DNA of 64,000 nt from Candidatus Tayloriibacteriota bacterium (GTDB lineage Bacteria; Patescibacteriota; Minisyncoccia; Phycocordibacterales; PALSA-1337). This document shows, in pieces, positions 5,306 to 52,195 of the stretch. Below the pieces are notes generated by a model that searched no databases, had not been told where the DNA came from, and was given only the letters and a program-made list of their open reading frames with translations. The position numbers were made by a program, and so were the translations under genes. The stretch's first letter is position 1. Each line of letters starts with the position of its first letter. The DNA lies in assembly GCA_016215455.1 (NCBI GenBank), contig JACRJP010000002.1, positions 2,809 to 66,808 on the forward strand, read 5' to 3'.

Positions 5306-5317
5306 ATCAAAGAATAA

Positions 5318-5629: not shown

Positions 5630-7684
<2,055 letters not shown>

Positions 7685-7689: not shown

Positions 7690-8304
7690 TTAGAGTTTGA
7701 GACGAATTGCGCGTTCCACCTTCTTTGGACTTGAACCTGTACAACTACCACTACCGGTTGTCACCCAACCCGCACTATATCCTCGCGATTCAACTACTAT
7801 ATTTTCGTAATTAGTATTACTTGTTCCATCCCATGCGTATCCTCGAGTGATAGAAACCTTTGCACATGTTGTTTCAGCTTTTCCTGTGTTTGTAGAAGAA
7901 AGATTTATATCAAAATCATATTTATATGCGGGAGTCACACTAAAAGTACCGTTCGAACTTGTTTGTACATTTCGAGTAAATCCTTTCCCTGTCACGGTAT
8001 ACCCTAAACCTCCGCAAAAGAAATTAGAAGTTTGAACATCAGCTGGTTGTGATGGTGATGGGAGTGTTGGTAGTGCTTGAGATGCTGTAGAGAACGCTCC
8101 AGCTTGATATTGATACACGACACATTCAATTCCTGTATCAGCTGCATAGATTGCAGATTGCGACTCTCGAGCAGCGCTCGCAAGAATACTTTCTTTACGT
8201 GTGATGTTGAGAATAGAGACGGCTACAGAAAGAACGAGAGAAGTCACCAACACCGCAAAAAGAAGTGTATAGCCATTTTTTTGTTGAGGGAAAATATTTT
8301 TCAT
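7690..8304 (-). CDS. type IV pilus minor pilin/pseudopilin (PilX-like), prepilin-type N-terminus
   Basis: N-terminus ...KNGYTLLFAVLVTSLVLSVAV resembles a class III signal with a hydrophobic helix. It is the first gene of the pilus cluster. Confidence 0.6.
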   Translation of the reverse strand: MKNIFPQQKNGYTLLFAVLVTSLVLSVAVSILNITRKESILASAARESQSAIYAADTGIECVVYQYQAGAFSTASQALPTLPSPSQPADVQTSNFFCGGLGYTVTGKGFTRNVQTSSNGTFSVTPAYKYDFDINLSSTNTGKAETTCAKVSITRGYAWDGTSNTNYENIVVESRGYSAGWVTTGSGSCTGSSPKKVERAIRLKL

Positions 8305-8307
8305 ATA

Positions 8308-8838
8308 TTATCGTATGGCATTATATATAGAACCATATAACACTTCTTCTGAAACAACTCCTCCAGGTCCATCCCAATACACTCGTATTTTTACAGAATA
8401 TTCATTGTCGTTAGTCGAAGCTTTTGTAAACTCCATAGTTCGACTAAACATTGTTCGAGTATTTGCTGCCGCACCGTTATGTGTAAACTTCCCTTCAGGA
8501 GTAAGATATAGTCGTGCTGGATCAGAGCTTTCTGCTCCGTTAGCACTCGAAATGCTTGGAGAATCACTTGCTGTATCTATTTTACAAACTGAATTCTTAC
8601 AACCATTTAGTGAAAGAGGAAGCCATACCGCACTGTCCTCTAAATATCCGTTATCTCGAATATTCTTAACCACTTCCAGAGCATCTTGTGCGAGATAGTT
8701 AGCAACAATCTGATCGCGTGCATACAAAGCAGACTTAAGAGATTTACTTGCAATTGTAAGTGGTCCTGCAATAGCGATCATAAGGACGGTGATCGCGACA
8801 AGAGTTTCTACAAGTGTAAATGCTCGTTGGGTATTCAT
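8308..8838 (-). CDS. prepilin-type pseudopilin (GspH/PilV-like)
   Basis: N-terminus RAFTLVETLVAITVLMIAIAGPL carries the prepilin cleavage/methylation motif. Its stop overlaps the start of the upstream gene. Confidence 0.65.
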   Translation of the reverse strand: MNTQRAFTLVETLVAITVLMIAIAGPLTIASKSLKSALYARDQIVANYLAQDALEVVKNIRDNGYLEDSAVWLPLSLNGCKNSVCKIDTASDSPSISSANGAESSDPARLYLTPEGKFTHNGAAANTRTMFSRTMEFTKASTNDNEYSVKIRVYWDGPGGVVSEEVLYGSIYNAIR

Positions 8839-8839
8839 A

Positions 8840-9463
8840 TTAGTTATTCATAAGACGAGGAGATACCGACGTCTGAAGTGAAAATGTTGTCTTTATTTTT
8901 TCTTTCGACCCTGAATATCCTTGAAGATTTATCTTGGCATATGGCTGACCTGGCATTCCCTTCACCGTAGGTATTATTACCGAAAAAGGATTGGTAGTTG
9001 TAATAACAATATCTTTTGCTGTGACATCGTCATATGTAGGAGTACTACCGCAACTAGTCTGTTCAGCTTTTTGAATCTTTCCTACCAAAGGATTTGCGCT
9101 CGTAACAAGCTTGTATACGTAAATCAAATTACATGTACCACCTGATCCATCAGGTGCTGCTACCGATGAACGAAAAGCCATGACACTACCTCCAGAACAA
9201 GCAGTCTTTGTGAAGGCTGTCCAACTTGGATCACTATTTCCACAGTAATAATCAGTTCCTACTCGCATTTCACGAGACATTGATTCAAGAGTGAAATTGA
9301 GATTATTAATAGCAGTTTTAAGAGCTTGGGCTTTTTTATTAGCATCAATGATTTTAATAAAAGCACCGAGCGCAACAACTGATACGAGTGCAAAAATACC
9401 CAATGAAACAATCATCTCAACGAGAGAGAAACCTTTTTTGTAATGATGTATAGAAAGTTTCAT
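8840..9463 (-). CDS. prepilin-type pseudopilin (PilW/GspJ-like)
   Basis: N-terminus KKGFSLVEMIVSLGIFALVSVVALG (G-F-x-x-x-E prepilin motif). Confidence 0.6.
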   Translation of the reverse strand: MKLSIHHYKKGFSLVEMIVSLGIFALVSVVALGAFIKIIDANKKAQALKTAINNLNFTLESMSREMRVGTDYYCGNSDPSWTAFTKTACSGGSVMAFRSSVAAPDGSGGTCNLIYVYKLVTSANPLVGKIQKAEQTSCGSTPTYDDVTAKDIVITTTNPFSVIIPTVKGMPGQPYAKINLQGYSGSKEKIKTTFSLQTSVSPRLMNN

Positions 9464-9466
9464 ATA

Positions 9467-10075
9467 TTAATCTTCAATAGAGATTTGTCCTGTTTTACGA
9501 ACTACAATATTTTTAAGATTACCTTGAGGAGACACCAATACTATTTTAACATACGACAACACCCCACTATTACCTGTGATAATAGCATCGGGATCAGGAC
9601 GTCGAAACGCAATACTCACATTTGGTGTGGTACTTGTACATCCTGAATTGGTACATATTTTCTGAACCACAATTCCTCTCTTGAGAACATACTTTGAAAT
9701 TGCTTCATCTACTGGAGTAGATGTATATATAGAGTTATTTTCAGTTGAATCAACAAAGAAGATAAACTGAGAGTTAGAACCACCTGTTGAACTTAGATAC
9801 ACACCGTATGCACACTGAAAGGTATCCGTACTGTTCACAGAGGAACAACTCGAAGGTGCTTCCTTTACGTTTAATCCGTACGTCTGTGCCTGACGAATTG
9901 TGAGAGCTACATCATATGCAAGATTTGTCACAATAATCCCCTGAGTCGCGTTTCCGTATTTAACAGCAAGAAATGCGGTCACAAAAGCAAAAATAGCAAC
10001 TGTGACCATGAGTTCAATCAAAGTGAACCCTCGAGATACCACAGACTGTGTTTTTTTATTGGAAAAAAAGCGCAT
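9467..10075 (-). CDS. prepilin-type pseudopilin (FimT/GspH-like)
   Basis: Motif SRGFTLIELMVTVAIFAF. I trimmed the start to the internal ATG at 10075 so that the overlap with pilD is only about 19 nt. Confidence 0.6.
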   Translation of the reverse strand: MRFFSNKKTQSVVSRGFTLIELMVTVAIFAFVTAFLAVKYGNATQGIIVTNLAYDVALTIRQAQTYGLNVKEAPSSCSSVNSTDTFQCAYGVYLSSTGGSNSQFIFFVDSTENNSIYTSTPVDEAISKYVLKRGIVVQKICTNSGCTSTTPNVSIAFRRPDPDAIITGNSGVLSYVKIVLVSPQGNLKNIVVRKTGQISIED

Positions 10076-10847
10076 TGAGGAACAAGAAATCAAGATGTCC
10101 AAACCATGCAATATACATGCCGAGAATGAGGTATGGAGCAAACGGAACCTCGACATTCCTAATTGTACGCTTTTTCTTGAGTATCACCAAGTAGATAACA
10201 CTGAAGACTGCCCCGAGCCAGAACGCCATAAAAATCCCTGATACACCGAAGACAAGTCCGGCAAGCCACCCAAGACTTACCACAAGTTTTGCATCACCAA
10301 ATCCAATCCATCGGCCTTTTGAAACAAACCAAAGTCCACCAAATACAGCAAAGAAGATAATACCCGACAAGAAATCAATGAGTTGAGGGAGATGGAGAAG
10401 TGACTCCCCTCCAACGAATAAACCTATGAATGAAACTGCCATGAGAGTAAATGAGAGGCTATCGGGAATAATCTTATGTCGTAGATCGTACACAAAAATA
10501 ACAATAAGAATAGCAGCAGCTATGGCATGAATAACAAAATACAGCATTGCGGGAAGTGTAAAAGGTTCGATACTGTAATACAGCAGTACAAAGAGAACTG
10601 CAGTAGCAGTTTCTACCATTGGATATTGATACGAGATATCACTTCGACAACTCCTACAACGTCCTCGGAGAAAAACAAAACTTACTAACGGTAGTAGTTC
10701 ATACCACTCGAGTTTTTTTGCACAAGAAAAGCATTGTGATCGTCCTCCTATCCCCTTACTACTGTTGTATCTTAAAATAACAACATTCAAAAAACTTCCG
10801 ATGATCAGACCAAATATTGCTACAAATACTCCGATAATGACCAGCAT
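10056..10847 (-). CDS. pilD: prepilin peptidase / N-methyltransferase (A24 family)
   Basis: 263-aa polytopic membrane protein. Has the N-terminal Zn tetracysteine (QCFSCAKK...RGRCRSCRSD) and the conserved catalytic aspartates of peptidase A24. Confidence 0.85.
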   Translation of the reverse strand: MLVIIGVFVAIFGLIIGSFLNVVILRYNSSKGIGGRSQCFSCAKKLEWYELLPLVSFVFLRGRCRSCRSDISYQYPMVETATAVLFVLLYYSIEPFTLPAMLYFVIHAIAAAILIVIFVYDLRHKIIPDSLSFTLMAVSFIGLFVGGESLLHLPQLIDFLSGIIFFAVFGGLWFVSKGRWIGFGDAKLVVSLGWLAGLVFGVSGIFMAFWLGAVFSVIYLVILKKKRTIRNVEVPFAPYLILGMYIAWFGHLDFLFLNALFFQ

Positions 10848-11369
10848 TTATTTTGAGGTAACTGCGTACGTGTTTGCACCAATAGTAATAGTAGTTCCAC
10901 TTATCAAGCCGCCTGTACCATTGGTACCGAACCAACCACTACCTCCAGCTACTCCACCTACGCCCTTATAACTATCAGCCAGAACACCATTTGTATTCTC
11001 AAGTGTTGTAGCGAGAACAAAGTCAGAACCCGCAGCATTTACAATATAGATATATTTTGTCTCAGATGTTCCACTAGGCGGATTTGGAATTTGTGAAATA
11101 AATGTCCCTCGATTTATCCCTGTAGGACACCCTGTGTTTACAAGAACATCAGACCCTACGATAAATAGACTTGTCGGGTACTGTCCACACTTATCAAAAT
11201 AAAGCTGTGCAACAAGCTGAAGCTGGTTGAGATCAGAAATACGTTTTGCATCACGAGACTTTGATTTTGCGGTATTAAGATTAGCAAGAACAACCGCAGA
11301 AATAATGGCAATAATAGCAATGACTACAAGAAGCTCGATAAGTGTGAATGCTTTTTTAGACTGTATCAT
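10848..11369 (-). CDS. type IV pilin (major-pilin-like)
   Basis: Motif KKAFTLIELLVVIAIIAIISAVVLANL, then a variable Gly/Thr-rich C-terminal domain containing a Cys pair. Confidence 0.75.
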   Translation of the reverse strand: MIQSKKAFTLIELLVVIAIIAIISAVVLANLNTAKSKSRDAKRISDLNQLQLVAQLYFDKCGQYPTSLFIVGSDVLVNTGCPTGINRGTFISQIPNPPSGTSETKYIYIVNAAGSDFVLATTLENTNGVLADSYKGVGGVAGGSGWFGTNGTGGLISGTTITIGANTYAVTSK

Positions 11370-11407
11370 AATGATGGGTAATATTATACCTATAGTATAT
11401 CATAGCC

Positions 11408-12496
11408 ATGTGCTACGATAATGATACCTACAATCTCATGAAAAAGATTCCCCTAGAAATTCTAATCGTATTCCTCCCTTGTGTCATTTTTCTCATACTC
11501 TCTCTGCTCTTTTTCCCAAAATTTCTGATCCTTATAACCCTCAACATACTTGATTTGAGTGGTTTCCAACTCATTATCGAAGGAGGAATACTCAAGGTAC
11601 TTGGAATAAGCTTCCTTATACTATCTATAAGCAGTATCCTATCTTTAATTTTTCTAAAAAAACAGTACTCTCTCAAAGACCTTACAAAAAGTTTCTGTTA
11701 CTTTTTACTTCTTGTTGGTGTGCCCGGATTCTTTTATTCATCATTAGCGTTTTACTTATTTACACATGCTGATATTCCTAAAGTAATAGAATACAGCAAA
11801 CTTTTTTCTCATTATGACAAAGTCATGTTCGGTACTGATATTTTCTTTACAATGCGACCTCTAGAAAAAATTCCTTTATTTGAATTTTTTGTTCTCCATA
11901 GCTATAGCTTATTAGTTCCTATATGTTCAGTATGTGCTCTTGGTATGTATATCTTCAAACCTCTTATATTTAGAAGATTCATTGCAAGCTTCTTTCTTGC
12001 TATGGCACTCGGCATCCCTATGTGGCATTACTTTCCAGCGGTAGCGCCAGCATCATTGTATCTCACTAATATTTTTAGACTCCACCTTGAACCAGAAGAT
12101 CAACAAGCTATCAACAATGACCGTATATCACCTCTTTTGCGAGAAAAACTAACCGAACAAAATAATCTGTATTTTGATCCTACCCTACGAAATATTAATA
12201 CGAGTAGTAATCCATCCATGCACGCAGCGTGGGGATTTATCATATTCTTCTATCTCTATATGTACTCAAAAAGATTGGTATACATCGCTGGAATCTATAG
12301 TATCCTCAATGTACTCGGGGCTCTCTATGTCGGACAACACTTTGGAATCGATATACTCACAGGTATATGTATTGCTATATTGAGTATATATACAGTCGAA
12401 AAAATCTTTACCCGATATGGTAAAGATTTTTTGGAAACACCGTATTATACAGTTAGCTACGCGATCAGAGGGATTATATACAAACTCCGTTATTGA
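11408..12496 (+). CDS. PAP2 (phosphatidic acid phosphatase type 2)-like polytopic membrane protein
   Basis: 362 aa with about 9 TM helices. Contains PSMHAAWG (like PSGH) and YVGQHFGIDILTG (like SRxxxxxHxxxD). It is the only plus-strand gene inside the pilus cluster. Confidence 0.45.
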   Translation: MCYDNDTYNLMKKIPLEILIVFLPCVIFLILSLLFFPKFLILITLNILDLSGFQLIIEGGILKVLGISFLILSISSILSLIFLKKQYSLKDLTKSFCYFLLLVGVPGFFYSSLAFYLFTHADIPKVIEYSKLFSHYDKVMFGTDIFFTMRPLEKIPLFEFFVLHSYSLLVPICSVCALGMYIFKPLIFRRFIASFFLAMALGIPMWHYFPAVAPASLYLTNIFRLHLEPEDQQAINNDRISPLLREKLTEQNNLYFDPTLRNINTSSNPSMHAAWGFIIFFYLYMYSKRLVYIAGIYSILNVLGALYVGQHFGIDILTGICIAILSIYTVEKIFTRYGKDFLETPYYTVSYAIRGIIYKLRY

Positions 12497-12980
12497 TCTG
12501 TGATGTTGTAATTGACGCTGCTGATGTAATAGATGGCCAAACTTTATTATTCCCTGAACTATCAACACACACAGTTCCAGATCCATCAGGTAAAACAGCT
12601 GCAACTGCCCACTTTGTTGCAGGACTTGTTGCACTCGAAACATCAAATGAACATATATAGTCAGTCGCAGCAGATAAGTTGTTAGTCAAACCAGTTCTGA
12701 TTGGTGTAACTGAAGTTGCAGCAAATGCACCGTTTGCACAACCTGTAGTATCACCCTTGCCAATAGCATAGTTTGTTGTTGCACCATATCCAGTTCCATC
12801 TGAATTGATTTCAAGCTGACTTCGAAGACTATTGAGAGTAGCTTTCACTGACGTAGCCTTACTTCTACTTCGAGCTGTACCAAGTGAGGCGAGTACAACT
12901 GAAGACAAAATACCAATAATAGCGATGACCACGAGCAATTCAATCAATGTGAAACCTTTTGAAAAACGATTATATTCCAT
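12474..12980 (-). CDS. type IV pilin (tandem paralog A)
   Basis: Motif SKGFTLIELLVVIAIIGILSSVVLASLGTARS followed by a Gly/Ser/Thr-rich domain with two Cys pairs. Confidence 0.75.
   Translation of the reverse strand: MEYNRFSKGFTLIELLVVIAIIGILSSVVLASLGTARSRSKATSVKATLNSLRSQLEINSDGTGYGATTNYAIGKGDTTGCANGAFAATSVTPIRTGLTNNLSAATDYICSFDVSSATSPATKWAVAAVLPDGSGTVCVDSSGNNKVWPSITSAASITTSQINNGVCI
12869..12957. repeat. 89-bp perfect direct repeat, copy 1 (5' end of pilin paralog A)
   Basis: Identical nucleotide string TTCGAGCTGTACCAAGTGAGGCGAGTACAACTGAAGAC...AATGTGAAACCT occurs again at 13424-13512. Confidence 0.8.
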
Positions 12981-13031
12981 GAGTAAATATTATTTTTTAA
13001 TACACTAAGTATATCATGCTTGAATAAAATC

Positions 13032-13068
13032 AAAAAAAACACCCGCCATACGACGGGTGTTTTTTTTG
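13032..13068. terminator. bidirectional rho-independent terminator
   Basis: A8 run, stem ACACCCG/CGGGTGT with an 8-nt loop, then T8 run. Confidence 0.7.
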
Positions 13069-13088
13069 ACAACAAACTAATTGAAATA

Positions 13089-13529
13089 TTAGTTACAGCC
13101 AGCTGATGCTACAACACCACTGATTGACTTAGCTGCACCTAAACTATCAACACACCAATTATTTCCTCCCTTGAGAGGTACTGACACTGCCCAATATGAA
13201 GCTGATGCTCCACAAGTAGCAGCACCTGCAGCGTTTGATGTTGTTGCTGAATTCAAAATATTCTTAACGGTAGCATCACCAAAGAGACCGAGAGTCTGGC
13301 AGTTCGCAGTTGAAGTTCCAGCTGTTCCAGAAGGCATATATGAATTATTTGAATCATAATAAAGTTCTGCCTGTGAACGAACCTGAGCGAGAGCTCCCTT
13401 AATTGCTGTGTCAGCAGCCTTAGTTCGAGCTGTACCAAGTGAGGCGAGTACAACTGAAGACAAAATACCAATAATAGCGATGACCACGAGCAATTCAATC
13501 AATGTGAAACCTGATGTCTTAATTTTCAT
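13089..13529 (-). CDS. type IV pilin (tandem paralog B)
   Basis: Motif TSGFTLIELLVVIAIIGILSSVVLASLGTART. The C-terminal domain carries Cys pairs. Confidence 0.75.
   Translation of the reverse strand: MKIKTSGFTLIELLVVIAIIGILSSVVLASLGTARTKAADTAIKGALAQVRSQAELYYDSNNSYMPSGTAGTSTANCQTLGLFGDATVKNILNSATTSNAAGAATCGASASYWAVSVPLKGGNNWCVDSLGAAKSISGVVASAGCN
13424..13512. repeat. 89-bp perfect direct repeat, copy 2 (5' end of pilin paralog B)
   Basis: Identical to 12869-12957 by direct comparison of the nucleotide string. Confidence 0.8.
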
Positions 13530-13688
13530 ATGTATTACTAATTTTAATATCTAAAGTGTAAGTCTACCTTACCTTTGTTCATAATTATAGCAAGATTAAC
13601 GGCCATTAATAGTAAAAAAGCTGTATTCTGTGGATAACTAGGGATTTCACCATATTTTATGGTGCATCGTCATCTTTTTTCTAACAAA

Positions 13689-14897
13689 CTACTGAGCAGC
13701 TGAGATGTTATAGATAGGAACAAGCACAGCAGCAAGAAGGAATGCTACACCGAGACCGAGCATAACAATCATAAGTGGCTCAATAAGATCAACAAGTGCA
13801 TCAACAGCCGTCTCTACTTCACGTGCATAGAATTTAGCGAGAGTCTTTAGGATGTTACCGAGTTCTCCTGTTTCTTCACCCACCTTAATCATTTGAATCA
13901 TGATACCTGGGATTTGATCGTTACCTGACAATGCCTCAGAAACAGGTTTACCTCCCTTCACTGCCTCTACGGCGCCTGCAATAATAGAGTTATATATCTT
14001 GTTATCAATCACTGATGAGGTGAGTTCAAGAGCTCGGATCATAGGAATACCCGATACAAGCATAGTATTCATGTTATCTGACAAACGTGAGAGATATAGC
14101 TTCTTATAAAGAGTACTGATATATGGAACAGAAAGCTTAAATCGATCAAACGCAATACTTCCTTCTGGAGTCTTCACAAAACGATAGATAAGGTACCCTA
14201 TAATCGCTGCAATACCAACAATAACGAAACCGTAGTGTACCAAACCGTTACTAATAGCGAGAACGACTTTGGTGTAGATAGGAATCTCCTGACCTGATTC
14301 AACAATAATTGCACTGATCTTTGGAATCACAACAGTAAACATGAGTACCATCACAGTAACGAATGTAAATACCACGAAAGCTGGGTAAATAAGAGCGCTC
14401 TTTGCCTTTGAGGTAAGTTCATATGAACGATCAAGGTAGTCAGCAAGATAATTGAATGTTTCATCAAGACGTCCTGATTCTTCACCTGCCTTTACCATAC
14501 TGATATAAAATTCAGAGAACACTGTTGGATGTTTTCCAAGAGAAGTTGAGATAGAACTACCACCCTGAAGATCATCTGCAATAGTTGCGAGTTTTACTCG
14601 AAGGAGTTTGTTCTCTGTTTCCTCCCCAAGAAGACGGAAGACTCGAAGCGCAGAGACCTGCGCCTGAAAAAGTGTTGAGAGTTGTCGTGACAAGATAACA
14701 ACATCCTTATTTGACACTCGCTCAAACCACGAAATATTTACATCAAAAATAGACTTCTTTCCTCCTGTTTCGTGAATATTTGTGATGACAAAGCCTCGTC
14801 GCTGGAGTGATGCAATAGCAATGTCGACATTAACAGCATCAATTGATCCTGTTTTTTTCTCTCCTTGAGCATCGACAGCTTGGTAAGTAAAAAGCAT
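13689..14897 (-). CDS. pilC: type IV pilus inner-membrane platform protein (GspF/PilC family)
   Basis: 402 aa with two GspF-like repeats and three TM segments. Confidence 0.85.
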   Translation of the reverse strand: MLFTYQAVDAQGEKKTGSIDAVNVDIAIASLQRRGFVITNIHETGGKKSIFDVNISWFERVSNKDVVILSRQLSTLFQAQVSALRVFRLLGEETENKLLRVKLATIADDLQGGSSISTSLGKHPTVFSEFYISMVKAGEESGRLDETFNYLADYLDRSYELTSKAKSALIYPAFVVFTFVTVMVLMFTVVIPKISAIIVESGQEIPIYTKVVLAISNGLVHYGFVIVGIAAIIGYLIYRFVKTPEGSIAFDRFKLSVPYISTLYKKLYLSRLSDNMNTMLVSGIPMIRALELTSSVIDNKIYNSIIAGAVEAVKGGKPVSEALSGNDQIPGIMIQMIKVGEETGELGNILKTLAKFYAREVETAVDALVDLIEPLMIVMLGLGVAFLLAAVLVPIYNISAAQ

Positions 14898-14902
14898 GGT
14901 GT

Positions 14903-15964
14903 TTATAACATTCTATCAAGAGTCTTAGGATTGAGCGAGTGTTGATATGCACTTTCTGCCGTAATTTCCCCTGCTCGAACAAGATCAGCGAGACATCGGT
15001 TCATATCGATCATACCTTCATTCGAACTTGTTTCAACAATAGTATTGATTTCATGAATACGTTTTTCACGAATGAGATTTGAAACAGCATTATTTGCAAT
15101 CAAAAGTTCGTATGCAGGGATAAGACCTCCTGATACTCGTGGAATAAGTCGTTGTGAAAAGATACCCGTAAGACTTCCTGCGAGCTGTACTCGAATCTGA
15201 TCCTGTTGTCCTGGTGGGAATGAGTCAATGATACGGTTAATGGTTTGTGAAGCATTATTCGTATGGAGTGTTGAGAAAATGAGGTGGCCAGTTTCAGCAG
15301 CTGTTACCGCTGTTGCCATAGTTTCGATATCTCGCATTTCACCAATAAGAGCAACGTTCACATCCTGACGAAGCATTCCAACAAGAGCTGTATGAAAATC
15401 CGGTGTATCAAAACGAACTTCTCGTTGATCGATAATCGACTTCTTTGATTCGTACATATACTCAACAGGATCTTCAATAGTAATGATATGCTCAGCTCGT
15501 GTCTGATTAATCATTTCAAGCATAGCTGCCAATGTGGTCGTCTTTCCTTGACCGATAGGTCCTACCACAAGAAAGAATCCCTGCTGTTTACGAGTGAATG
15601 TTTCAAGAATTGGAGGAAGATTAAGATCTTGAAGTGTCTTAATTGTTTTAGGAATCAAACGAAGTGCGACAGAAATAGCACCCTGACGATAAAAAGCATT
15701 TCCTCGAAAACGAGCGACACTCCCTACCGCATATGAGAAGTCCACTTCACGAAGCTCTTCAAATCGAGCTTTATTTTCTTTTGAAAGGAGCACATCGAGA
15801 AATCCATGAATATCCTTTTGAGTTAATTCAGTCTTTTTCACTAATGGCAAAAGTTGACTTGATACTCGAATGACTGGATGACGTCCTTCAGCAATGTGGA
15901 GATCAGAAGCCCCTTCTTTGAGCACCATATCTACCATTTCTTCAAGTTCTCTTTTGTAGTCCAT
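14903..15964 (-). CDS. pilT: type IV pilus retraction ATPase (PilT family)
   Basis: 353 aa. Walker A GPIGQGKTTT, Asp box, Walker B and a His box (TLHTN). Length is typical of PilT. Confidence 0.85.
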   Translation of the reverse strand: MDYKRELEEMVDMVLKEGASDLHIAEGRHPVIRVSSQLLPLVKKTELTQKDIHGFLDVLLSKENKARFEELREVDFSYAVGSVARFRGNAFYRQGAISVALRLIPKTIKTLQDLNLPPILETFTRKQQGFFLVVGPIGQGKTTTLAAMLEMINQTRAEHIITIEDPVEYMYESKKSIIDQREVRFDTPDFHTALVGMLRQDVNVALIGEMRDIETMATAVTAAETGHLIFSTLHTNNASQTINRIIDSFPPGQQDQIRVQLAGSLTGIFSQRLIPRVSGGLIPAYELLIANNAVSNLIREKRIHEINTIVETSSNEGMIDMNRCLADLVRAGEITAESAYQHSLNPKTLDRML

Positions 15965-15968
15965 ATGA

Positions 15969-16364
15969 TTAACCTTTTATTTTCTTATAAATCTTATTCA
16001 CCTCTTCAAGCACCTCCGATGGAATGGTTGAGGCTTTGATGATATATCCATCAACATGTAATTTCTGAGCTCGTTCAACATCAGAAGGAGCACTTTGATT
16101 AGTGAGCATGATCACCACAGCATTCGGAGCAAGTTTCTCTTTTCGAATTACCTCGAGAAGTTCAACCCCGTCCATTCCTGGCATTACCACATCAAGAAGA
16201 ATAATATCGGGTAACAAACCTCCATCTCGAAGTACTTTCAGTGTTTCTTCAGGCCCTGCTGCACAATGTACGTCATACCCATTCTTCGAAAACTTCAATG
16301 AGTACATATCAAGAAGGAATTTATCATCATCAACAAGAAGTAGAGAAATTGGTTTTGTAGACAT
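15969..16364 (-). CDS. single-domain response regulator (CheY-like receiver, PilH/PilG-like)
   Basis: 131 aa. Motifs LLVDDD, ...LLDVVMPGMDG, ...DGYIIK. Confidence 0.75.
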   Translation of the reverse strand: MSTKPISLLLVDDDKFLLDMYSLKFSKNGYDVHCAAGPEETLKVLRDGGLLPDIILLDVVMPGMDGVELLEVIRKEKLAPNAVVIMLTNQSAPSDVERAQKLHVDGYIIKASTIPSEVLEEVNKIYKKIKG

Positions 16365-16415
16365 AAAAGTTCTGAGTAATCTTATTATACTATAACTTCG
16401 ACCAAATTAATGACA

Positions 16416-18146
16416 TTACAGTGTATTAACTTCCTCAAATGGGATAAGTCCTTTAAATGCTTTTAACATAGCATCCTCTTTCATAGTAAGCATTCCCTTT
16501 TGACGAAGAATTTTTGAGATCTCAAGCTCTGTTGGACTTTTCATAAGAACTGATTCAATTTCTTTGTCCATCATAAACACTTCAAACACTGCCTGACGAC
16601 CTCGAGTTCCCTTTGGACATTCAGGAGTTGGTACCGCTTCATATACAGTCTTACCGATTTCAATTTGACTTCGAAATTCTGCAGGAAAATCACCGAATTG
16701 TTTGTCGACAATCGCTTTAATAGCACCTTCAACAGGAATAGGTTTTCCACCACCAGGACAGAGAGTACGAACGAGACGTTGAGCCATGGCACAGATAAGA
16801 GTTGGTGCAATAAGGTACGGATCAACTCCCATATCAATAAGACGAGGAATAACACCTGCAGCGTTATTGGTGTGAAGTGTAGAGAATACCAAGTGACCGG
16901 TAAGAGCAGCCTGTACAGCAAGCTGTGCAGTTTCTTTATCTCGAATTTCTCCCACCATGATCACATCAGGGTCCTGACGAAGTGTTGTACGGAGACCGGA
17001 CGCAAATGTATATCCAATTTCAGGGTGCACTTGTGACTGTGCAATTCCTTCCATGTTGTATTCCACTGGGTCTTCAAGTGAAAGTACGTTCATTGCCTCT
17101 TTATCAACCTCATTGAGCATGGAATATAGAGTTGTTGATTTACCGGAACCTGTTGGACCAGTAATCAAAATGAGACCGTACGGACGATGAATAGCGTCTC
17201 GAACACGAGCAAGATTGGTTGGAGTAAGCCCAACATCATCAAGTTTCTTTACCCCCTTATCAGGGTCAAGAATACGCATCACCACCTTTTCTCCGTAGTA
17301 TGCGGGGAATGTTGAGACTCGGAAGTCGATACGACGTCCTTCAATACGAGCAGAGAAACGTCCGTCTTGTGGCTTTCTCTTTTCATCAAGCTTCATGTTT
17401 GAAAGCACCTTAATACGAGCAACTACAGCGCTATGCACTTTCATTGGAAGAACAAGACTTGTATTAAGCACACCATCAACACGGAAACGAACTCGAAACT
17501 TATCATGCATTGGCTCAATATGCACATCGGATGCATTACCTTCTGTTGCATAACGAACAATCGTTGCCACAATTTTTACCACCGGAGCGTCTTCGATGAT
17601 AAGAGGTTCTGCTCCGCCAGCACTTCCAGGAATTGGCGCACCCTTTGGTGGAGTTACTGTTGAATCACTATCGACAGAGAGAACAGTTTCAAGTTCAGAG
17701 AGAGCTTTTGACACTTCCCCTGTAATACCTTTGTACATTTCAATGACCTTTTCAAAGTCTTGTGTACTGATAATAAAAATTTTATATGGAACATTTTTCT
17801 TTGCTGCAATAAAGTTCAAAGCATCACGTGCCTCAATGTTATCAGGATCAACAATACCAACTTCAAGTGCTCCATCTTTAAGAGCAAGTGGTACAAACTT
17901 ATAATGAATAGCTGATTCTTCAGGAATATACTCGAGAATTTCAAAAGGAATACTGATGTCTTGAAGAGCTCGAATTGGCACATTCATAAACTCCCCTTTT
18001 GCTATAAGAATATCTTCTGGTTTGACCCCACGATCAATCAAAGCTTTTTCAAGGGTAACATCCCCAGAGGCCGTCATCTTGCGGACCTCCTGCACATCTT
18101 CCTTTGTTATGACATTTTTCTTTAGCAGGATATCGACGACACTCAT
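16416..18146 (-). CDS. pilB: type IV pilus assembly ATPase (GspE/PilB family)
   Basis: 576 aa. N-terminal T2SSE_N-like domain, Walker A GPTGSGKSTT, His box TLHTNNA. Confidence 0.9.
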   Translation of the reverse strand: MSVVDILLKKNVITKEDVQEVRKMTASGDVTLEKALIDRGVKPEDILIAKGEFMNVPIRALQDISIPFEILEYIPEESAIHYKFVPLALKDGALEVGIVDPDNIEARDALNFIAAKKNVPYKIFIISTQDFEKVIEMYKGITGEVSKALSELETVLSVDSDSTVTPPKGAPIPGSAGGAEPLIIEDAPVVKIVATIVRYATEGNASDVHIEPMHDKFRVRFRVDGVLNTSLVLPMKVHSAVVARIKVLSNMKLDEKRKPQDGRFSARIEGRRIDFRVSTFPAYYGEKVVMRILDPDKGVKKLDDVGLTPTNLARVRDAIHRPYGLILITGPTGSGKSTTLYSMLNEVDKEAMNVLSLEDPVEYNMEGIAQSQVHPEIGYTFASGLRTTLRQDPDVIMVGEIRDKETAQLAVQAALTGHLVFSTLHTNNAAGVIPRLIDMGVDPYLIAPTLICAMAQRLVRTLCPGGGKPIPVEGAIKAIVDKQFGDFPAEFRSQIEIGKTVYEAVPTPECPKGTRGRQAVFEVFMMDKEIESVLMKSPTELEISKILRQKGMLTMKEDAMLKAFKGLIPFEEVNTL

Positions 18147-18157
18147 ATGTAGTTTAA

Positions 18158-18508
18158 TTATCTACCCGCAGCTGGAACACGTGGAGTTGAAGTAGTAGCA
18201 GAACGAGATGAAGATCCCAGTGGTGCGAATGGATTCACACGACCAATAGGGATTGCTGGAACTTCGATAGTATAGTCAACGAGTACCTTGTATTCGAGAG
18301 ATTCGAACAAAGAATTATCAATTTTAAGATTATTAAGTTGTACAAGAAGAGCTGCAATATCATCTCCTCCTGCAATAGAACCCTGAACCTCACCTGGAAT
18401 CATTGTGAAAGCTGGTTCATTGTTTCCAGAGAAACCAAAATAAGCGGCAACAGCTGCTGCTATCAGAATGACGATGATTATAATTGTTTTTGTATTTGAT
18501 CCGTTCAT
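18158..18508 (-). CDS. small signal-anchored protein in the pilus operon (possible PilP-like)
   Basis: 116 aa with one N-terminal TM helix. Located between the pilB and PilO-like genes. Confidence 0.4.
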   Translation of the reverse strand: MNGSNTKTIIIIVILIAAAVAAYFGFSGNNEPAFTMIPGEVQGSIAGGDDIAALLVQLNNLKIDNSLFESLEYKVLVDYTIEVPAIPIGRVNPFAPLGSSSRSATTSTPRVPAAGR

Positions 18509-18509
18509 G

Positions 18510-19112
18510 TTAGTTTTGGCGAAGCCAATATGTCTTAAGCTCTACAGAAAAGTCATACACATTTGAATCAGTTGGAGCAAATGAAATCTTTGTTATATCA
18601 AGAATACGAAGACTAAGTTCAAGATCGTGGAGAATATTAATAAAATTCTCATATGTCGTAGTGACATTAAAATTCATGGTCAAAGCATCATACTTTGAAA
18701 GAGATGCTGGGGCTTGCTGCTGAATACTTGGTGCTGGAGAACCAGACACACTTGCAGCACCTCCTGTTGCAGGTGCTGTCTTAGTTGAATTTCCTCCTCC
18801 TGTACGAACATTCTTGATCGAAACTCCTCGACGAGAAGTAATACCGTTGATATCGATAATCAAACGTATGTTATCAATATGATCAGGTAGCAATTTCTTG
18901 AGTCGTTCACGGTCCACCTCAGCAATACTGTTGTATGCATTAATAACTTGATCTCGTTTTTTGAGAAGCTCTTTTGAATCTTCAAGTGTCTTGCTGAATT
19001 GAGCATTTTCAGCCATGGCAGCACGCACCTTGTCATACTGACCGACAGTAAAGGTAAAGAAGATACCTATCGCGACTATTATGAGTACTAATGGAAGAAT
19101 GTTTCGGTTCAT
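18510..19112 (-). CDS. PilO-like pilus assembly protein
   Basis: 200-aa bitopic protein with a TM helix, a coiled-coil segment and a C-terminal domain. Its position follows the PilN-like gene. Confidence 0.55.
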   Translation of the reverse strand: MNRNILPLVLIIVAIGIFFTFTVGQYDKVRAAMAENAQFSKTLEDSKELLKKRDQVINAYNSIAEVDRERLKKLLPDHIDNIRLIIDINGITSRRGVSIKNVRTGGGNSTKTAPATGGAASVSGSPAPSIQQQAPASLSKYDALTMNFNVTTTYENFINILHDLELSLRILDITKISFAPTDSNVYDFSVELKTYWLRQN

Positions 19113-19117
19113 AATGG

Positions 19118-19837
19118 TTATTGACGAGTAGATGTTGCAGTTGTTGTTGCAGACGGAGTCGACACATCCGTAGGTGATGTTCCTCCACTCAAAGCACTTT
19201 CGATATATTTCTTAAATGAAATTTCTTGTGGATCAACTCCAGCACTGAAAGAAAATCCTACTGTCCCCTTATCATCGATACCGAAATCAGATACAACAGG
19301 ATCCTTGAGTACCTTACTTCCCCCGAAGACATCAGACTGGAATGCAAGCACAGGAAGAGATGTTCCTTCACCCTTCATACTCATAACAATTCTATCCTTA
19401 ACATTTGTTGGAAAAGTAACATCAAATGACTTAAATCGTACACTTGTTGTTGTTTCTCTCCCTATAACATCAAAGATATTCGCCACAGCGAGGTGGTTGT
19501 TGATTAATTCTCTCGAGAGATTTATTTTTGCATTGAAGCGCTCGAGAAACTTAATGTCTGTACCGAACTGTTCACGATTGTGTGTAATCTGTTTTTTATA
19601 ACTCTCCTGTTGCTTTTGTAATATTTTTGTCCAAGCAAATACTCCACCCGCCATAGCAACTGAGATAATGAAAACAAGAACACCAATGATACTAAAAAGA
19701 CTAACTGATTGGTGGATCTGTTGTCCTGTCTCCGGGACAAGTGGCTTTTTCGGTATGAATGATGTTTGAAATTTGGTTTCCATGGAAAAAAGGAACTGTA
19801 GTGAGTATATTATAGCCCAGAACAAACCTTCCGACAC
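19118..19837 (-). CDS. PilN-like pilus assembly protein (start may be the internal ATG near 19783)
   Basis: Bitopic protein with a Ser/Thr-rich tail. Lies immediately downstream of pilM. Confidence 0.55.
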   Translation of the reverse strand: MSEGLFWAIIYSLQFLFSMETKFQTSFIPKKPLVPETGQQIHQSVSLFSIIGVLVFIISVAMAGGVFAWTKILQKQQESYKKQITHNREQFGTDIKFLERFNAKINLSRELINNHLAVANIFDVIGRETTTSVRFKSFDVTFPTNVKDRIVMSMKGEGTSLPVLAFQSDVFGGSKVLKDPVVSDFGIDDKGTVGFSFSAGVDPQEISFKKYIESALSGGTSPTDVSTPSATTTATSTRQ

Positions 19838-19858
19838 TAGTAAAGTGTGTATATCTCG

Positions 19859-20980
19859 CTACTGAATTTCAGAAAGACGGCGTAGAGCAATACCTATAGC
19901 GACCGCGAATTCAGGACCGGCAGTTTTGAATTGTTCAGCAAGGAATGCAGGTGTTTCGAGCTTACCAAAAGGATCTGCGTATACAACATTGTTCTGGAAA
20001 CTCGTCTTAGCAAGTTCAGTAAAACCCTTAAGAAGTACTCCTCCCCCTGTAAGGATGATTTTACTGATATCTTTATTGTATTTTCTTTGATAGCCGAGCA
20101 TCACACGATTCGCTTCATAAAAAACATAGTCGAGAGTAAGACTAATAACGTCAGTTAATTCCTTATGTTCAGGTCCTCCCGTCAAACCATACACTCGCTT
20201 CATATTTTCTGCTTCAGTAACTGGAATACTCAGAGATTTTGAAATAGCTAATGTAATATCTTGTGATCCTCGATTAATAATATGAGATGTTCGCAAAAGC
20301 CCTCGCTCGATAATGTAGAGTTTTGTGGTACTTGCTCCCATATCTACCACCATATTTGCCTGAATACCTTGATCAAGTACTGCACGGAGTGAACTGAAGA
20401 GCTCTATCTCAAAGAATGATGATTGAAGTCCTGTCTTTGCCATAAGGCCTTGGTAGTTAGCGATAGATTCGTTGTGTATCGCAACAACAAGAACTTCACT
20501 TGTTCCTTTGTTGACTGGTGGTTGTGATCCAGCTGGAAGCGAAGTATCTTCAATTGCATCTTCTTTAGGAATTATTGACCAATCAAGGAGAACTTCAGTA
20601 ATTGGTACAGGAATATACTTTCGAGCTTCGAGAGTAATAATCTCTCCAATCTGTTTACTATCAGTAGCAGGGACATTAATAAAACTAATAAGGCTCGATG
20701 AGAGTGGTAATGCGGTACCACATGTCTTTGTTGTTGTTTTTGCTTCACGCAAAATATCAGTAAGCGCCTGAGCTGTTTTTTCGAGAGTAAGGTTAGTTGC
20801 ACGTCCAATTTCAGTGCCTCCATAAGGACCGAGAGCAAGTTCACCATAGGTTTCAAGAACAGCTCTTCCTTTCTTTTTCTTGATTTGTACAATCTTAATC
20901 GCTGACGAACCGATATCAATACCAAGAACACTTTGTTCCTTTTTGCCGAATATAGAAAAGATGTTCTTTAGAAAATCCAT
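19859..20980 (-). CDS. pilM: type IV pilus assembly protein PilM (actin-like ATPase fold)
   Basis: 373 aa. N-terminus GIDIGSSAIKIVQIKK... with FtsA/actin-like phosphate-binding motifs. Confidence 0.8.
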   Translation of the reverse strand: MDFLKNIFSIFGKKEQSVLGIDIGSSAIKIVQIKKKKGRAVLETYGELALGPYGGTEIGRATNLTLEKTAQALTDILREAKTTTKTCGTALPLSSSLISFINVPATDSKQIGEIITLEARKYIPVPITEVLLDWSIIPKEDAIEDTSLPAGSQPPVNKGTSEVLVVAIHNESIANYQGLMAKTGLQSSFFEIELFSSLRAVLDQGIQANMVVDMGASTTKLYIIERGLLRTSHIINRGSQDITLAISKSLSIPVTEAENMKRVYGLTGGPEHKELTDVISLTLDYVFYEANRVMLGYQRKYNKDISKIILTGGGVLLKGFTELAKTSFQNNVVYADPFGKLETPAFLAEQFKTAGPEFAVAIGIALRRLSEIQ

Positions 20981-21021
20981 ACAGAATATAGTCTAGTATA
21001 TCATAACTATTTGAGACTTTC

Positions 21022-21705
21022 TTGAGTATTCCTTCATGGTCAATATTTTATACTGCTCCCATGAAAAATATAGTGGCACATGTAGTAAACTTCATTTTCC
21101 CTAATAAAATCTCACAATGTGGTCTTACCATCAATACCCTACTTACCCAAGAACGCTATTGTTTTGAAGAACTATATCCCAAGATATACAGCATATGTCG
21201 TTACAAGAACACATTAATCCGCAACTTGATTCACCAAGTAAAGTTTAAGGGCGATGAAACGACAGCAGAAATCATAGCATCGTGCATAGCGCGACACATA
21301 GACACAATACTTGAGTCGCTATTAAGAAATCACCCTCCTGATCACAGATACAAAGTTATACTCATTCCCATACCTTCGAGTCATCGACGAAGAATGTCTC
21401 GTGGATGGAATCAGTGTGAGATAATTGCACGCCATATCCCCTCATGGAGCGTGTACCGCCCTCTCGTCGCTCTTCATATTCTCAAACGTTCTGAGACCAC
21501 CTCGTTTCAGAAAAAATTATCTCGCCACGAACGTCTCCAGGCTCAGAAAAATTCATTTACTGCATTTCCTCACCACTCTACTGATGAGACCATTGTAATT
21601 GTCATTGATGACATCGTCACAACTGGTGCGACACTTAGAGAAGCAATTACAACCTTAGAAAAAGGTGGCTATAGGAATGTATTCGGTATAGCGTTTGCTC
21701 ACTAA
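21022..21705 (+). CDS. comFC: ComF family protein (phosphoribosyltransferase-domain competence protein)
   Basis: C-terminal PRTase motif VIVIDDIVTTGATL. Transcribed divergently from pilM. Confidence 0.7.
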   Translation: MSIPSWSIFYTAPMKNIVAHVVNFIFPNKISQCGLTINTLLTQERYCFEELYPKIYSICRYKNTLIRNLIHQVKFKGDETTAEIIASCIARHIDTILESLLRNHPPDHRYKVILIPIPSSHRRRMSRGWNQCEIIARHIPSWSVYRPLVALHILKRSETTSFQKKLSRHERLQAQKNSFTAFPHHSTDETIVIVIDDIVTTGATLREAITTLEKGGYRNVFGIAFAH

Positions 21706-21709: not shown

Positions 21710-23122
21710 TTACTGAACACTGTCGACAATCGAAAAATAGTCATCACTTTGATCACACTTTGATGTACCAGCTAAACACACTTCAATCTTATAGTTGCCT
21801 TTAGGGATCGGTTTATTATCAATATCGGTACCGACGATCCAGTTATAGATTGTACTAACGGCTACATTCTTATCGAGAATTGCGGCTCGATACGTACAAT
21901 CGCGTGGTGGAAGTATCGTAAGTGAAGGTGACGTTACATCAGCAGTATCACTTTGCGTTGTAACACAGAGGGATGTGTTTAGGTACAAATCCAGTTTAGT
22001 TGTCGTAGTGGCATTCGTAGGAACCCAACTTATTTGAGGAGTAGACTTGAGAACCCACTGTTCACCACCATTCGGAGACGTAAGGCGTACTGATACAGGT
22101 TTTTCAGAGGTTCGCACATTTACCGTTGTGCTTGTTTGAGTAATAAGCCCTGAAGCATTACGTACTGTAAAAACAATCTTATACACACCCGCCTTTTCAT
22201 AGCTATGTGTAAATGTTGATGTTTGTACAAAAGGTTGAGGAGTTGGATTTGCAGCCGAGGTTCGAAGAAGTGTCGGAAGCGATACTGGTTCATCACCCCA
22301 TGTGACCATATAACTTAAGCTTGTATTTTGAGGATCAGAAGCATGAACAACCCATGTTCCTAATTGATCAACACTAAGCTCTACAGGAGCATCAAGACGA
22401 TCAATTACTGGAGATTTGATTGCGGTATTTGAACTAATAGTAAAAGGTCGACTTGTTGCACATACGGTAGATGTACCATTTTGACATATCTGAATTGTGT
22501 ACACACCATCAGATGGTGGAGTACCACCTAAGTTACTGATAAAGTCACCGACACGCCAATTATACAAATGCTGATCTACACTGATATTCTGAGCAATTAC
22601 GTATGAGACATTTGGCTGACATACATATCCTTGAGGACAAGCAGGAGCAACAGGAGCAAGAATAATATGGCCATAGGTCGCACGAACGAATGCAGGGGCA
22701 TTCCAAAGAATTGTTTCGGTTGAACCTCGTTTCCAATTCTCACCACCTCGAGGAGAAGTGATCTTAAAAGACATCTCCTGAGATTCATTATTTAACTTAG
22801 CTCGAGTAAGAGGACCGACGTATCCTGTACTCGCAACACCAACCGAAGCTTGGAATTTTTCAACTGCACGTTTTGTTTGTTCACCAAAGTACCCCTTTGG
22901 AGTAGCATTTGAACTCACCGAAGGTATATCGAATCCTTGATTAATAAGAAGAGTCTGTAATTCAGCTACATCAACATTTGATGAGCCAATCGACATGTCT
23001 TTTTCAAATACATAATTTCCTGCCGATACACTTGAGGTCAAAGAAAGAATTGCAGCCACCACAAATACCGGTAATAATTTTTTCATAGTCATACAGTAAG
23101 TATACACAAAAACGAACGACAC
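21710..23122 (-). CDS. secreted protein with an N-terminal peptidoglycan-binding-like domain and internal repeats
   Basis: Signal peptide. PG_binding_1-like motif (VDVAELQTLLINQGFDI...GYFGEQTKRAVEKFQ). Contains a repeated ~40-aa module (YNWRVGDF...YTIQICQNGTS and YNWIVGTD...YKIEVCLAGTS). Confidence 0.6.
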   Translation of the reverse strand: MSFVFVYTYCMTMKKLLPVFVVAAILSLTSSVSAGNYVFEKDMSIGSSNVDVAELQTLLINQGFDIPSVSSNATPKGYFGEQTKRAVEKFQASVGVASTGYVGPLTRAKLNNESQEMSFKITSPRGGENWKRGSTETILWNAPAFVRATYGHIILAPVAPACPQGYVCQPNVSYVIAQNISVDQHLYNWRVGDFISNLGGTPPSDGVYTIQICQNGTSTVCATSRPFTISSNTAIKSPVIDRLDAPVELSVDQLGTWVVHASDPQNTSLSYMVTWGDEPVSLPTLLRTSAANPTPQPFVQTSTFTHSYEKAGVYKIVFTVRNASGLITQTSTTVNVRTSEKPVSVRLTSPNGGEQWVLKSTPQISWVPTNATTTTKLDLYLNTSLCVTTQSDTADVTSPSLTILPPRDCTYRAAILDKNVAVSTIYNWIVGTDIDNKPIPKGNYKIEVCLAGTSKCDQSDDYFSIVDSVQ

Positions 23123-23185: not shown

Positions 23186-23274
23186 GGCGGAGAGAGCGAG
23201 ATTCGAACTCGCGGTTCCAATTAAGGAACGGCGGTTTAGTAAACCGCTGGTTTAAACCACTCACCCATCTCTCC
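23186..23274 (-). tRNA. class II (long variable arm) Ser-like tRNA; the anticodon reads ACT by my parse
   Basis: Acceptor GGAGAGA/TCTCTCC with discriminator G. Anticodon stem GCGGT/ACCGC with loop TTACTAA. Variable arm GTTCC-TTAATT-GGAAC. T-arm GCGAG TTCGAAT CTCGC. A partial CC 3' end is encoded. Confidence 0.6.
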
Positions 23275-23390: not shown

Positions 23391-23639
23391 TTATGAAAGG
23401 TGTCCAGAAACAAGCTTTGTCATTTCAAACATGTTTACCATAGACTTTCCTCCAAAAACTTTCTTAAGCTTTTCATCAGCATTGATGTTTCGCTTATTCT
23501 TTTCGTCCTGGAGCTTATTTTCCTTGATGTAAACCCAGATCTGCTTAACTACCTCACCTCGTGACATAGGTCCTGCACCGATAACAGCCGCTAATTCCGG
23601 ACTGATCTTCATTGGCTTCGAAAGTGCTGCATTTGGCAT
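23391..23639 (-). CDS. SWIB/MDM2-domain protein
   Basis: LSPELAAVIG...MSRGEVVKQIWVYIKENKLQDEKNKRNINADEKLKKVFG...MFEMTKLVSGHL tracks the SWIB consensus closely. I trimmed the start to the internal ATG at 23639. Confidence 0.7.
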   Translation of the reverse strand: MPNAALSKPMKISPELAAVIGAGPMSRGEVVKQIWVYIKENKLQDEKNKRNINADEKLKKVFGGKSMVNMFEMTKLVSGHLS

Positions 23640-23761
23640 TGTCTTTATGATATTTACTTGTATGGGGTATAGTATAGCGCTTTTAAGGGATTTTGGAAGG
23701 AGGGCAAATAAACTACTCAATATCCAGACCTGAAGTTAAGATGTACGGACCATAACTCTAC

Positions 23762-29445: not shown

Positions 29446-29449
29446 ATTG

Positions 29450-52154: not shown

Positions 52155-52195
52155 ATCAGGGGGAAGCTATCGGAGCTGACCCTTTTTATTTTAAA

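Follow-up and report, generated by a model that had tools for sequence, protein, structure and literature searches.

A probable secretin-less type IVa-like pilus locus in a Candidatus Taylorbacteria genome

Type IV pili (T4P) are thought to be central to the way in which ultra-small Patescibacteria find and hold their hosts and take up DNA. Here we describe a T4P gene cluster at positions 7690-21705 of a 64,000-nt stretch (the window) of contig JACRJP010000002.1, positions 2,809 to 66,808, from a Candidatus Taylorbacteria genome (GenBank assembly GCA_016215455.1). The cluster had earlier been taken, from its letters and open reading frames (ORFs) only, for a pilus and competence locus of 18 consecutive genes; we return to the claims of that sequence-only reading with profile searches, predicted structures and a comparison of related loci.

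Pilus loci of this kind are on record. In bacteria of the candidate phyla radiation (CPR), PilB, PilT, PilC, PilO, PilN, PilM and PilD are co-localised in many genomes that have no PilQ, and ComEC and ComFC are widespread (Meheust et al. 2019, PMC6744442). Saccharibacteria cannot do without their T4P genes but can do without comEC, comF and dprA, of which comEC is needed for transformation; the authors consider T4P to be essential for reasons other than competence (PMC10633639). Of the pili of TM7x, one aids host binding; the locus with PilT is essential and has been tied to twitching, and the tested pilus mutants stay competent (PMC11623550).

Set beside them, the Taylorbacteria region is very probably a standard type IVa-like pilus machine, retractile and secretin-less, of a monoderm Patescibacterium.

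The pilus machine

The region holds 16 close-packed minus-strand ORFs, a plus-strand ORF inside the array (11408-12496) and another at its far end (21022-21705). The 18 ORFs and the boundaries first given for them are real; the genes then named sum to 17, the eighteenth being an opposite-strand PAP2_3 gene that went unmentioned. Pfam and NCBIfam profiles assign PilM, PilB, the receiver, PilT, PilC and PilD unambiguously, which upholds the earlier naming of pilD, pilC, pilT, pilB and pilM. The motor, platform and alignment genes and pilD are as follows.

19859-20980, minus strand: PilM, 373 aa, actin-like cytoplasmic alignment protein, first minus-strand gene of the cluster (Pfam PilM_2, 110 bits; NCBIfam TIGR01175, 146 bits against a cut-off of 133)
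19118-19783, minus strand: PilN, 221 aa when started at ATG 19783 (19837 in the longest ORF), from AlphaFold fold, position and N-terminal motif
18510-19112, minus strand: PilO, 200 aa (weak Pfam PilO match, 26 bits; profile-to-PDB matches)
16416-18146, minus strand: PilB extension ATPase, 576 aa (553 aa in other gene callers), with an N-terminal MshEN domain (Pfam T2SSE, 407 bits; MshEN, 49 bits; top NCBIfam model type_IV_pilB, 497 bits, under its 676-bit equivalog cut-off)
14903-15964, minus strand: PilT retraction ATPase, 353 aa (NCBIfam TIGR01420, PilT/PilU family, 412 bits against a cut-off of 319)
13689-14897, minus strand: PilC platform protein, 402 aa (Pfam T2SSF twice, 191 bits; NCBIfam GspF/PilC matches)
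10056-10847, minus strand: PilD prepilin peptidase/N-methyltransferase, 263 aa (Pfam A24_N_bact, 103 bits; Peptidase_A24, 41 bits)

Proteins like PilP, PilO and PilN had also been proposed. PilO is sustained by profile comparison: a profile of 15 orthologous sequences finds Myxococcus xanthus PilO (3jc8_Oa, E = 1.4e-12) and Pseudomonas aeruginosa PilO (2rjz, E = 0.004). Searches of Pfam, NCBIfam and PDB gave no match to the sequence of the 19118-19783 product, and its database homologues are all annotated 'hypothetical'. Its AlphaFold model, with a predicted local distance difference test score (pLDDT) of 77, is that of a bitopic protein with a transmembrane (TM) helix, a long coiled coil and a ferredoxin-like domain, and the N-terminal segment MExKFQTSFIPKKP is invariant in an alignment of homologues. 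We accept it as PilN on the predicted fold, the position and this segment. The PilP proposal did not stand and is taken up below.

The gene order recurs in relatives. A PilB scan with one genome per species yielded 80 loci, of which the 33 closest (L001-L033; PilB identity 39-65%) come from Patescibacteria or unclassified 'bacterium' metagenome-assembled genomes, except for two records titled Gammaproteobacteria that have the same gene order; we call them the Patescibacteria loci. BLASTP of the window proteins against the ORFs of the loci recovers one order across these 33 and in the closest relative, L084, which is 79% identical: a divergent ComF gene, then PilM, PilN, PilO, a small protein, PilB, in some loci a receiver, PilT, PilC, pilins, PilD, minor pilins, LigA and GatC/GatA.

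In the window, LigA (5630-7666, minus strand) lies on the strand of the pilus genes, 23 nt after the last minor pilin, and GatC/GatA (3851-5608, minus strand) come next. LigA follows the pilus cluster in eight loci (L001, L005, L009, L014, L016, L018, L027 and L030), with GatA after it in four of the eight and GatC too in three. Because they follow the cluster in relatives, these housekeeping genes appear to share an operon with it.

No ORF of at least 200 aa in the window, the set used in all our Pfam searches for partner proteins, carries a Secretin domain; the same search readily detects secretins in diderm loci. The absence of PilQ from the cluster, as first reported, is confirmed within the window and fits the monoderm pilus of Patescibacteria.

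The junctions between genes had been misread. Four overlaps had been cited (8304/8308, 8838/8840, 9463/9467 and 14897/14903) and translational coupling proposed from them. Since on the minus strand the higher coordinate belongs to the start codon and the lower to the stop, these are gaps of 3, 1, 3 and 5 nt, and the coupling argument falls with them, tight as the packing is. The sole candidate overlap to replace them lies between pilD and the first minor pilin: the two would share 20 nt with the minor pilin starting at ATG 10075, and none with a start at GTG 10042. A promoter scan of the region found fewer promoter-like sites than in shuffled sequence and is uninformative.

Pilins and minor pilins, with two further prepilin-type proteins encoded outside the cluster, are the following.

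13089-13529, minus strand: pilin, 146 aa, probable major pilin, first pilin after pilC (N_methyl, 32.5 bits)
13029-13070, minus strand: intrinsic-terminator-like hairpin, 19-bp stem and T run, directly 3' of the probable major pilin gene
12474-12980, minus strand: second pilin, 168 aa (N_methyl, 36 bits)
10848-11369, minus strand: third pilin, 173 aa, abutting pilD with zero intergenic bases (N_methyl, 32 bits; GspG-like, E = 3.6e-8)
9467-10075, minus strand: minor pilin 1, GspH/FimU-like (N_methyl, 30 bits, at ORF residues 41-63; weak GspH match, E = 1e-4)
8840-9463, minus strand: minor pilin 2, GspJ/PilW/ComGE-like, 207 aa (N_methyl, 29 bits; ComGE, E = 1e-7, and GspJ, E = 2e-4, both under cut-offs)
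8308-8838, minus strand: minor pilin 3, PilV/GspI-like, 176 aa (N_methyl, 28 bits; PilV, E = 2.4e-5, and GspI, E = 3.6e-4, both under cut-offs)
7690-8304, minus strand: candidate minor pilin 4, PilX/GspK-like, 204 aa (weak HpsC pseudopilin match, E = 1.7e-4; positional orthologues)
24256-24882, minus strand: orphan prepilin-type protein, 208 aa, PilA/GspG-like N-terminus (N_methyl, 33 bits)
35453-36373, minus strand: orphan prepilin-type protein, 306 aa, with a lectin-like Laminin_G_3 domain (N_methyl, 23.5 bits; Laminin_G_3, 64.5 bits)

Of the four pseudopilins and three pilins proposed at the outset, six carry the Pfam prepilin N_methyl motif. The 146-aa pilin is probably the major one, because its gene has the largest intergenic gap upstream (159 nt) and the strongest terminator hairpin of the region (13070-13029) downstream. 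The 168-aa pilin is its paralogue, their mature N-termini being identical over about 29 residues from GFTLIE. The ORF of minor pilin 1 reaches 10156; as its prepilin motif begins at ORF residue 41, the true start is probably ATG 10075 or GTG 10042. The seventh protein (7690-8304) is weakly supported. It has no Pfam match, N_methyl included, and begins with a hydrophobic class-III-like N-terminus, G|YTLLF, that lacks Glu5 and is followed by the motif AIYAADTGIE. Its phmmer orthologues are the last cluster gene in six loci (L001, L005, L009, L010, L018 and L027), with LigA as the next gene wherever the locus includes it; they were taken from the first round, an iterated hidden Markov model (HMM) having drifted into all pilins by round 3-4. 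These features would fit a PilX/GspK-like fourth minor pilin. Outside the cluster, the 208-aa orphan is a likely PilD substrate, and the 306-aa orphan is a candidate adhesive pilin.

The plus-strand gene inside the array stands apart.

11408-12496, plus strand: PAP2_3/PAP2 polytopic membrane protein, 362 aa (Pfam PAP2_3, 65 bits; PAP2, 40 bits)

It splits the pilin genes and converges on the 168-aa pilin gene with a 23-nt overlap. No homologue was found by BLASTP in any of the 80 related loci, and the gene, to judge by this comparison, is not part of the conserved cluster. At the corresponding spot of L084, after the first pilin and on the strand opposite to the pilus genes, lies an unrelated polytopic membrane protein without a Pfam match (14742-15683, minus strand). 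A conserved pilin-modifying accessory role for PAP2 was rejected on these observations. The spot beside the pilins may be a variable slot for accessory genes, by analogy with pilin-modifying enzymes elsewhere in bacteria.

The PilP slot and the receiver

Between pilO and pilB, where diderm clusters would lead one to look for pilP, is a short ORF.

18158-18508, minus strand: small bitopic protein, 116 aa, of an unannotated family, in the PilP position; GRxNPF(A)P near its C-terminus is invariant

It has no sequence match in Pfam, NCBIfam or PDB, and none of 72 sampled members of its family matches Pfam PilP or, consistently, any other family. Its AlphaFold2 model consists of a TM helix, short helices and an extended conserved tail ending in GRxNPF(A)P. 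As this model has no beta-strands and the searches found no PilP match in Pfam or PDB, the protein lacks the C-terminal beta-sandwich (HR) domain of PilP. The earlier label 'PilP-like' is therefore not borne out; what the protein has in common with true PilPs is the GRxNPF motif.

The family is large. An exhaustive HMMER search gave 1268 cluster representatives at E <= 1e-3, and the best 150 of the 1268 are mostly about 90-140 aa long; sampled members are annotated hypothetical, and one is from Candidatus Vogelbacteria. With the family HMM the protein is found immediately upstream of PilB in at least 25 of the 33 Patescibacteria loci, after PilO where PilO was detected. The same HMM found nothing convincing in the non-Patescibacteria loci, where two marginal matches have E of about 0.01.

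The motif itself has a counterpart in PilP. The N-terminal region of M. xanthus PilP (PDB 3jc8) contains NPVGKRDPFRSP, which matches a GRxNPF-type motif, and [RK]x[DN]PF recurs in four PilP-position proteins that are encoded directly upstream of confirmed secretin genes and whose C-terminal domains align with M. xanthus PilP. In PilP the unstructured N-terminal part binds PilN/PilO and the C-terminal beta-domain binds PilQ (PMC5805733). From that division of labour we infer, by analogy, that GRxNPF may be a PilNO-binding element, and the comparison suggests that the 116-aa protein could be a PilP reduced to its PilN/PilO-docking part.

A second small gene separates the two motor ATPases.

15969-16364, minus strand: stand-alone receiver, 131 aa (Pfam Response_reg, 73 bits), between pilB and pilT

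The CheY-like receiver described in this place by the sequence-only reading is confirmed, with CheY and receiver structures as its top PDB matches. In alignment its pocket is complete: the Asp-Asp pair, the phospho-acceptor Asp, the Thr and the Lys are all kept. A signature, K-[AST]-x-x-x-P-[ST]-x-V, is confined to the pilus-embedded receiver orthologues, other receivers in the same loci being without it. About a third of the Patescibacteria loci (11 of 33) have a receiver between PilB and PilT, and so does L084. Because it has no output domain, it should act by protein contact; its position would point to PilB, PilT or the platform as targets.

ComF, DNA uptake and other readings

At the far end of the cluster a ComF-family gene faces away from pilM, as had been noted.

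21022-21705, plus strand: ComF-family protein with a phosphoribosyltransferase fold, 227 aa, divergent from pilM across 41 nt (NCBIfam TIGR00201, E = 1.7e-25)

The match to TIGR00201 covers model positions 17-184 of 190 and scores 90 bits, under the cut-off of 233.55. The phosphoribosyl pyrophosphate loop is present as DDIVTTGATL (pattern DDxxTTGxTL), and Pfam Pribosyltran scores 26 bits. A phmmer search of PDB gave no ComFC match, returning only designed helical-repeat proteins, which are spurious. Aligned with 18 Patescibacteria ComFs, the window protein and those of L001, L002, L003 and L021 lack the 4-Cys zinc finger (N-terminal CxxC...CxxC) that more distant Patescibacteria ComFs keep. 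In Helicobacter pylori ComFC the four Cys are highly conserved and the zinc finger is needed for DNA internalisation; with two of the Cys mutated, complementation of transformation is abolished and membrane association reduced (PMC9005727).

From pilT, the receiver and comF together it had been concluded that this is a DNA-uptake pilus rather than an adhesion-only one: PilT retraction would pull DNA in, ComF would hand it to ComEC, and the receiver would turn competence on. The evidence does not support that conclusion, and we consider a pilus dedicated to DNA uptake unlikely. Of the 33 Patescibacteria loci, 21 do show ComF and PilM as a divergent pair, but LigA and GatC/GatA are just as syntenic, so in such reduced genomes the adjacency carries little functional weight; this ComF, moreover, falls far below its family cut-off and lacks the very zinc finger that H. 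pylori ComFC requires. PilT is present, in favour of that reading, but the machine around it is of type IVa (T4aP), not of ComG type, since the ComGA and ComGB models stay below their cut-offs (264 bits against 300 and 121 against 240) and well under the PilB- and PilC-type matches. CPR bacteria, which are without nucleotide synthesis, widely encode ComEC, DprA and ComFC (PMC6744442, PMC10633639), and Saccharibacteria are naturally transformable via ComEC (PMC10633639); against this, the partner genes that had been suggested for a search, comEC, comEA and dprA, left no domain in the ORFs of at least 200 aa of the 64-kb window to which the search was applied. In the only relatives open to genetics, T4P genes of S. 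epibionticum are essential while its comEC is not, and TM7x T4P-2 mutants have wild-type competence (PMC10633639, PMC11623550). The locus gives no reason to prefer DNA uptake to attachment or motility, and DNA uptake is one possible use of the pilus among these.

Far less probable still is a type II secretion-like pseudopilus that exports proteins and forms no long surface pilus. PilC, PilB and several pilins do match GspF, GspE, GspG and GspH-K models as well, and the four minor pilins resemble the GspH-I-J-K set, but the retraction ATPase of the PilT/PilU family scores above its family cut-off, PilM/N/O alignment proteins of the T4aP kind are present, an exported protein would have neither an outer membrane nor a secretin to pass, and members of the phylum are known to bear pilus-like appendages and to twitch by means of T4P (PMC11623550). 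We give least credence, close to none, to the idea that the cluster is partly decayed, with the PAP2 insertion, the zinc-finger-less ComF and a truncated PilP-like protein as marks of lost function, for although an opposite-strand gene parts pilins from pilD and the minor pilins, and the ComF zinc finger is lost, every ORF is intact and tightly packed, three independent metagenome assemblies carry the cluster proteins at 100% identity, the small-protein family is conserved with its 1268 representatives, and the zinc-finger-less ComF is common to a whole clade.

For the retractile, secretin-less pilus preferred here, the domain and fold assignments show the following working. PilD processes nine or more prepilin-type proteins whose genes lie in the window; PilM, PilN, PilO and PilC form the cytoplasmic-membrane platform, with PilB driving extension and PilT retraction. 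The filament consists mainly of the 146-aa pilin, the probable major one, is primed by the four minor pilins (H/J/I/K-like), and needs no secretin because there is no outer membrane. The receiver may be a phospho-switch in the style of CheY, PilG and PilH that contacts a motor ATPase or the platform and biases extension against retraction, its kinase presumably being coded elsewhere in the genome. In the PilP slot the 116-aa GRxNPF protein probably docks PilN/PilO through its linear motif, as the PilP N-terminus does; the beta-domain for secretin binding would have been lost from it or never been there. The pilus could then be a general-purpose retractile appendage for attachment to hosts or surfaces and for twitching, with DNA capture as a possible extra task. 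The ComF-family neighbour, which is without the zinc finger, would be a conserved syntenic partner.

Several points weigh against this account or parts of it. PilB, PilC and the pilins fall under NCBIfam equivalog cut-offs, as is expected of a deep lineage. The link to PilP is a short motif of about six residues, and when hhalign compared the GRxNPF family with a PilP alignment, the match was confined to the 10 columns of the motif, with a probability of 1% and E = 0.055, for which reason homology of the 116-aa protein to PilP is not claimed. No histidine kinase, the expected partner of the receiver, is found by Pfam in the window's ORFs of at least 200 aa. The sequence holds nothing on pilus function in Candidatus Taylorbacteria, and the experimental data come from Saccharibacteria, another class. 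A bolder proposal joins two of these parts: that the GRxNPF protein is a membrane-anchored, secretin-less PilP remnant, reduced to the PilN/PilO-docking motif and serving as a fourth, universal subunit of the Patescibacteria alignment complex, and that the receiver toggles PilB/PilT directly, replacing the Chp/Pil-Chp chemosensory system. Taken jointly this is tentative, and we rate its chances clearly below even.

Neighbouring genes and comparison with known systems

Other features of the window touch the pilus less directly. A secreted 470-aa protein with PG_binding_1 and PKD repeats (21710-23122, minus strand) lies directly beside the ComF gene; it is compatible with an envelope that contains peptidoglycan, and no link to the pilus is implied. 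A tRNA-Ser of type II, with a long variable arm, lies at 23186-23274 (minus strand); its anticodon, ACU, has an unmodified-looking A34 in a two-codon box, and a normal tRNA-Ser(GCU) is found 2.3 kb from it at 25586-25675. A tRNA-Ile at 29449-29523 (minus strand) has the anticodon UAU, and the ACU and UAU calls were both re-checked on the ARAGORN cloverleaf. A 109-aa ORF (82 aa in other gene callers) at 23391-23720 (minus strand) is a SWIB/MDM2 domain (110 bits), a fold best known in eukaryotic chromatin remodellers. In the ribosomal-protein operon, between secY (55404-56675) and adk (50352-50948), are four ORFs without a Pfam match (51009-55331, minus strand), two of which (52245-54290 and 54314-54952) have signal-peptide-like N-termini of clearly similar sequence (…SCP(S/D)GSV(M/L)VGF…VGSL). 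A 968-aa protein at 44996-47902 (minus strand) has weak TrwB, TraG-D_C and DUF87 matches and resembles a VirD4-type coupling ATPase, and its neighbours at 44311-44991 and 48277-49551 are of no known family; it may belong to a monoderm-type type IV secretion system, such as has been reported for Patescibacteria (PMC12102498).

On pilus architecture and secretin loss the locus brings no new insight. Three details may be modestly useful to specialists: a very large unannotated family of small proteins with a PilP-like motif, coded throughout the phylum between pilO and pilB; a receiver domain wedged between the motor ATPase genes in a subset of lineages; and a clade of zinc-finger-less, pilM-adjacent ComFs, which warns against taking a comF gene beside pil genes for a sign of competence. 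A limited literature check found no description of the GRxNPF family or of a clade-level loss of the ComF zinc finger, and no paper on a receiver between pilB and pilT in Parcubacteria.

The receiver is like PilG/PilH and the CheY-type regulators that control T4P in being a receiver-only protein with a full phospho-acceptor pocket. Unlike them it is coded between two motor ATPase genes and not in a Chp/Pix chemosensory operon, has no CheA-type or other kinase within the 64-kb window, and carries K-[AST]-x-x-x-P-[ST]-x-V in place of the usual Lys-Pro.

The ComG pilus of Bacillota (ComGA-GG, ComC) with ComFA/ComFC is, like this one, a secretin-less type IV filament of monoderms, and both have a ComF-family gene nearby. 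The window differs in having PilT and PilM/N/O, which Com systems lack, in having no ComFA, and in the missing zinc finger of its ComF.

With diderm T4aP systems (PilMNOPQ/PilBTC of M. xanthus and P. aeruginosa) the locus shares its core parts, the PilN/PilO fold, the PilT family and four minor pilins, and its PilP-slot protein carries the PilP-like [RK]x[DN]PF motif. It differs from them in that the cluster is without PilQ, the PilF/Tgl pilotin and the PilP beta-domain, that PilMNO and PilBTC stand in one operon-like array, and that a lone receiver would regulate in place of PilS/PilR or Chp.

The closest systems are the Patescibacteria/CPR pilus loci (PMC6744442), including T4P locus 1 of the Saccharibacteria TM7x and S. 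epibionticum (PMC11623550, PMC10633639), in which PilB/T/C/M/N/O/D and several pilins are likewise co-localised, PilQ is absent and the bacterium is monoderm and ultra-small. The GRxNPF protein immediately upstream of pilB is not named in the passages of these three papers that were consulted. What sets the Taylorbacteria-like clade apart from these loci is the receiver between pilB and pilT and the zinc-finger-less ComF beside pilM, to which the window adds a genome-specific PAP2 gene among the pilins; in its architecture the locus is a further example of the pilus published since 2019 (PMC6744442).

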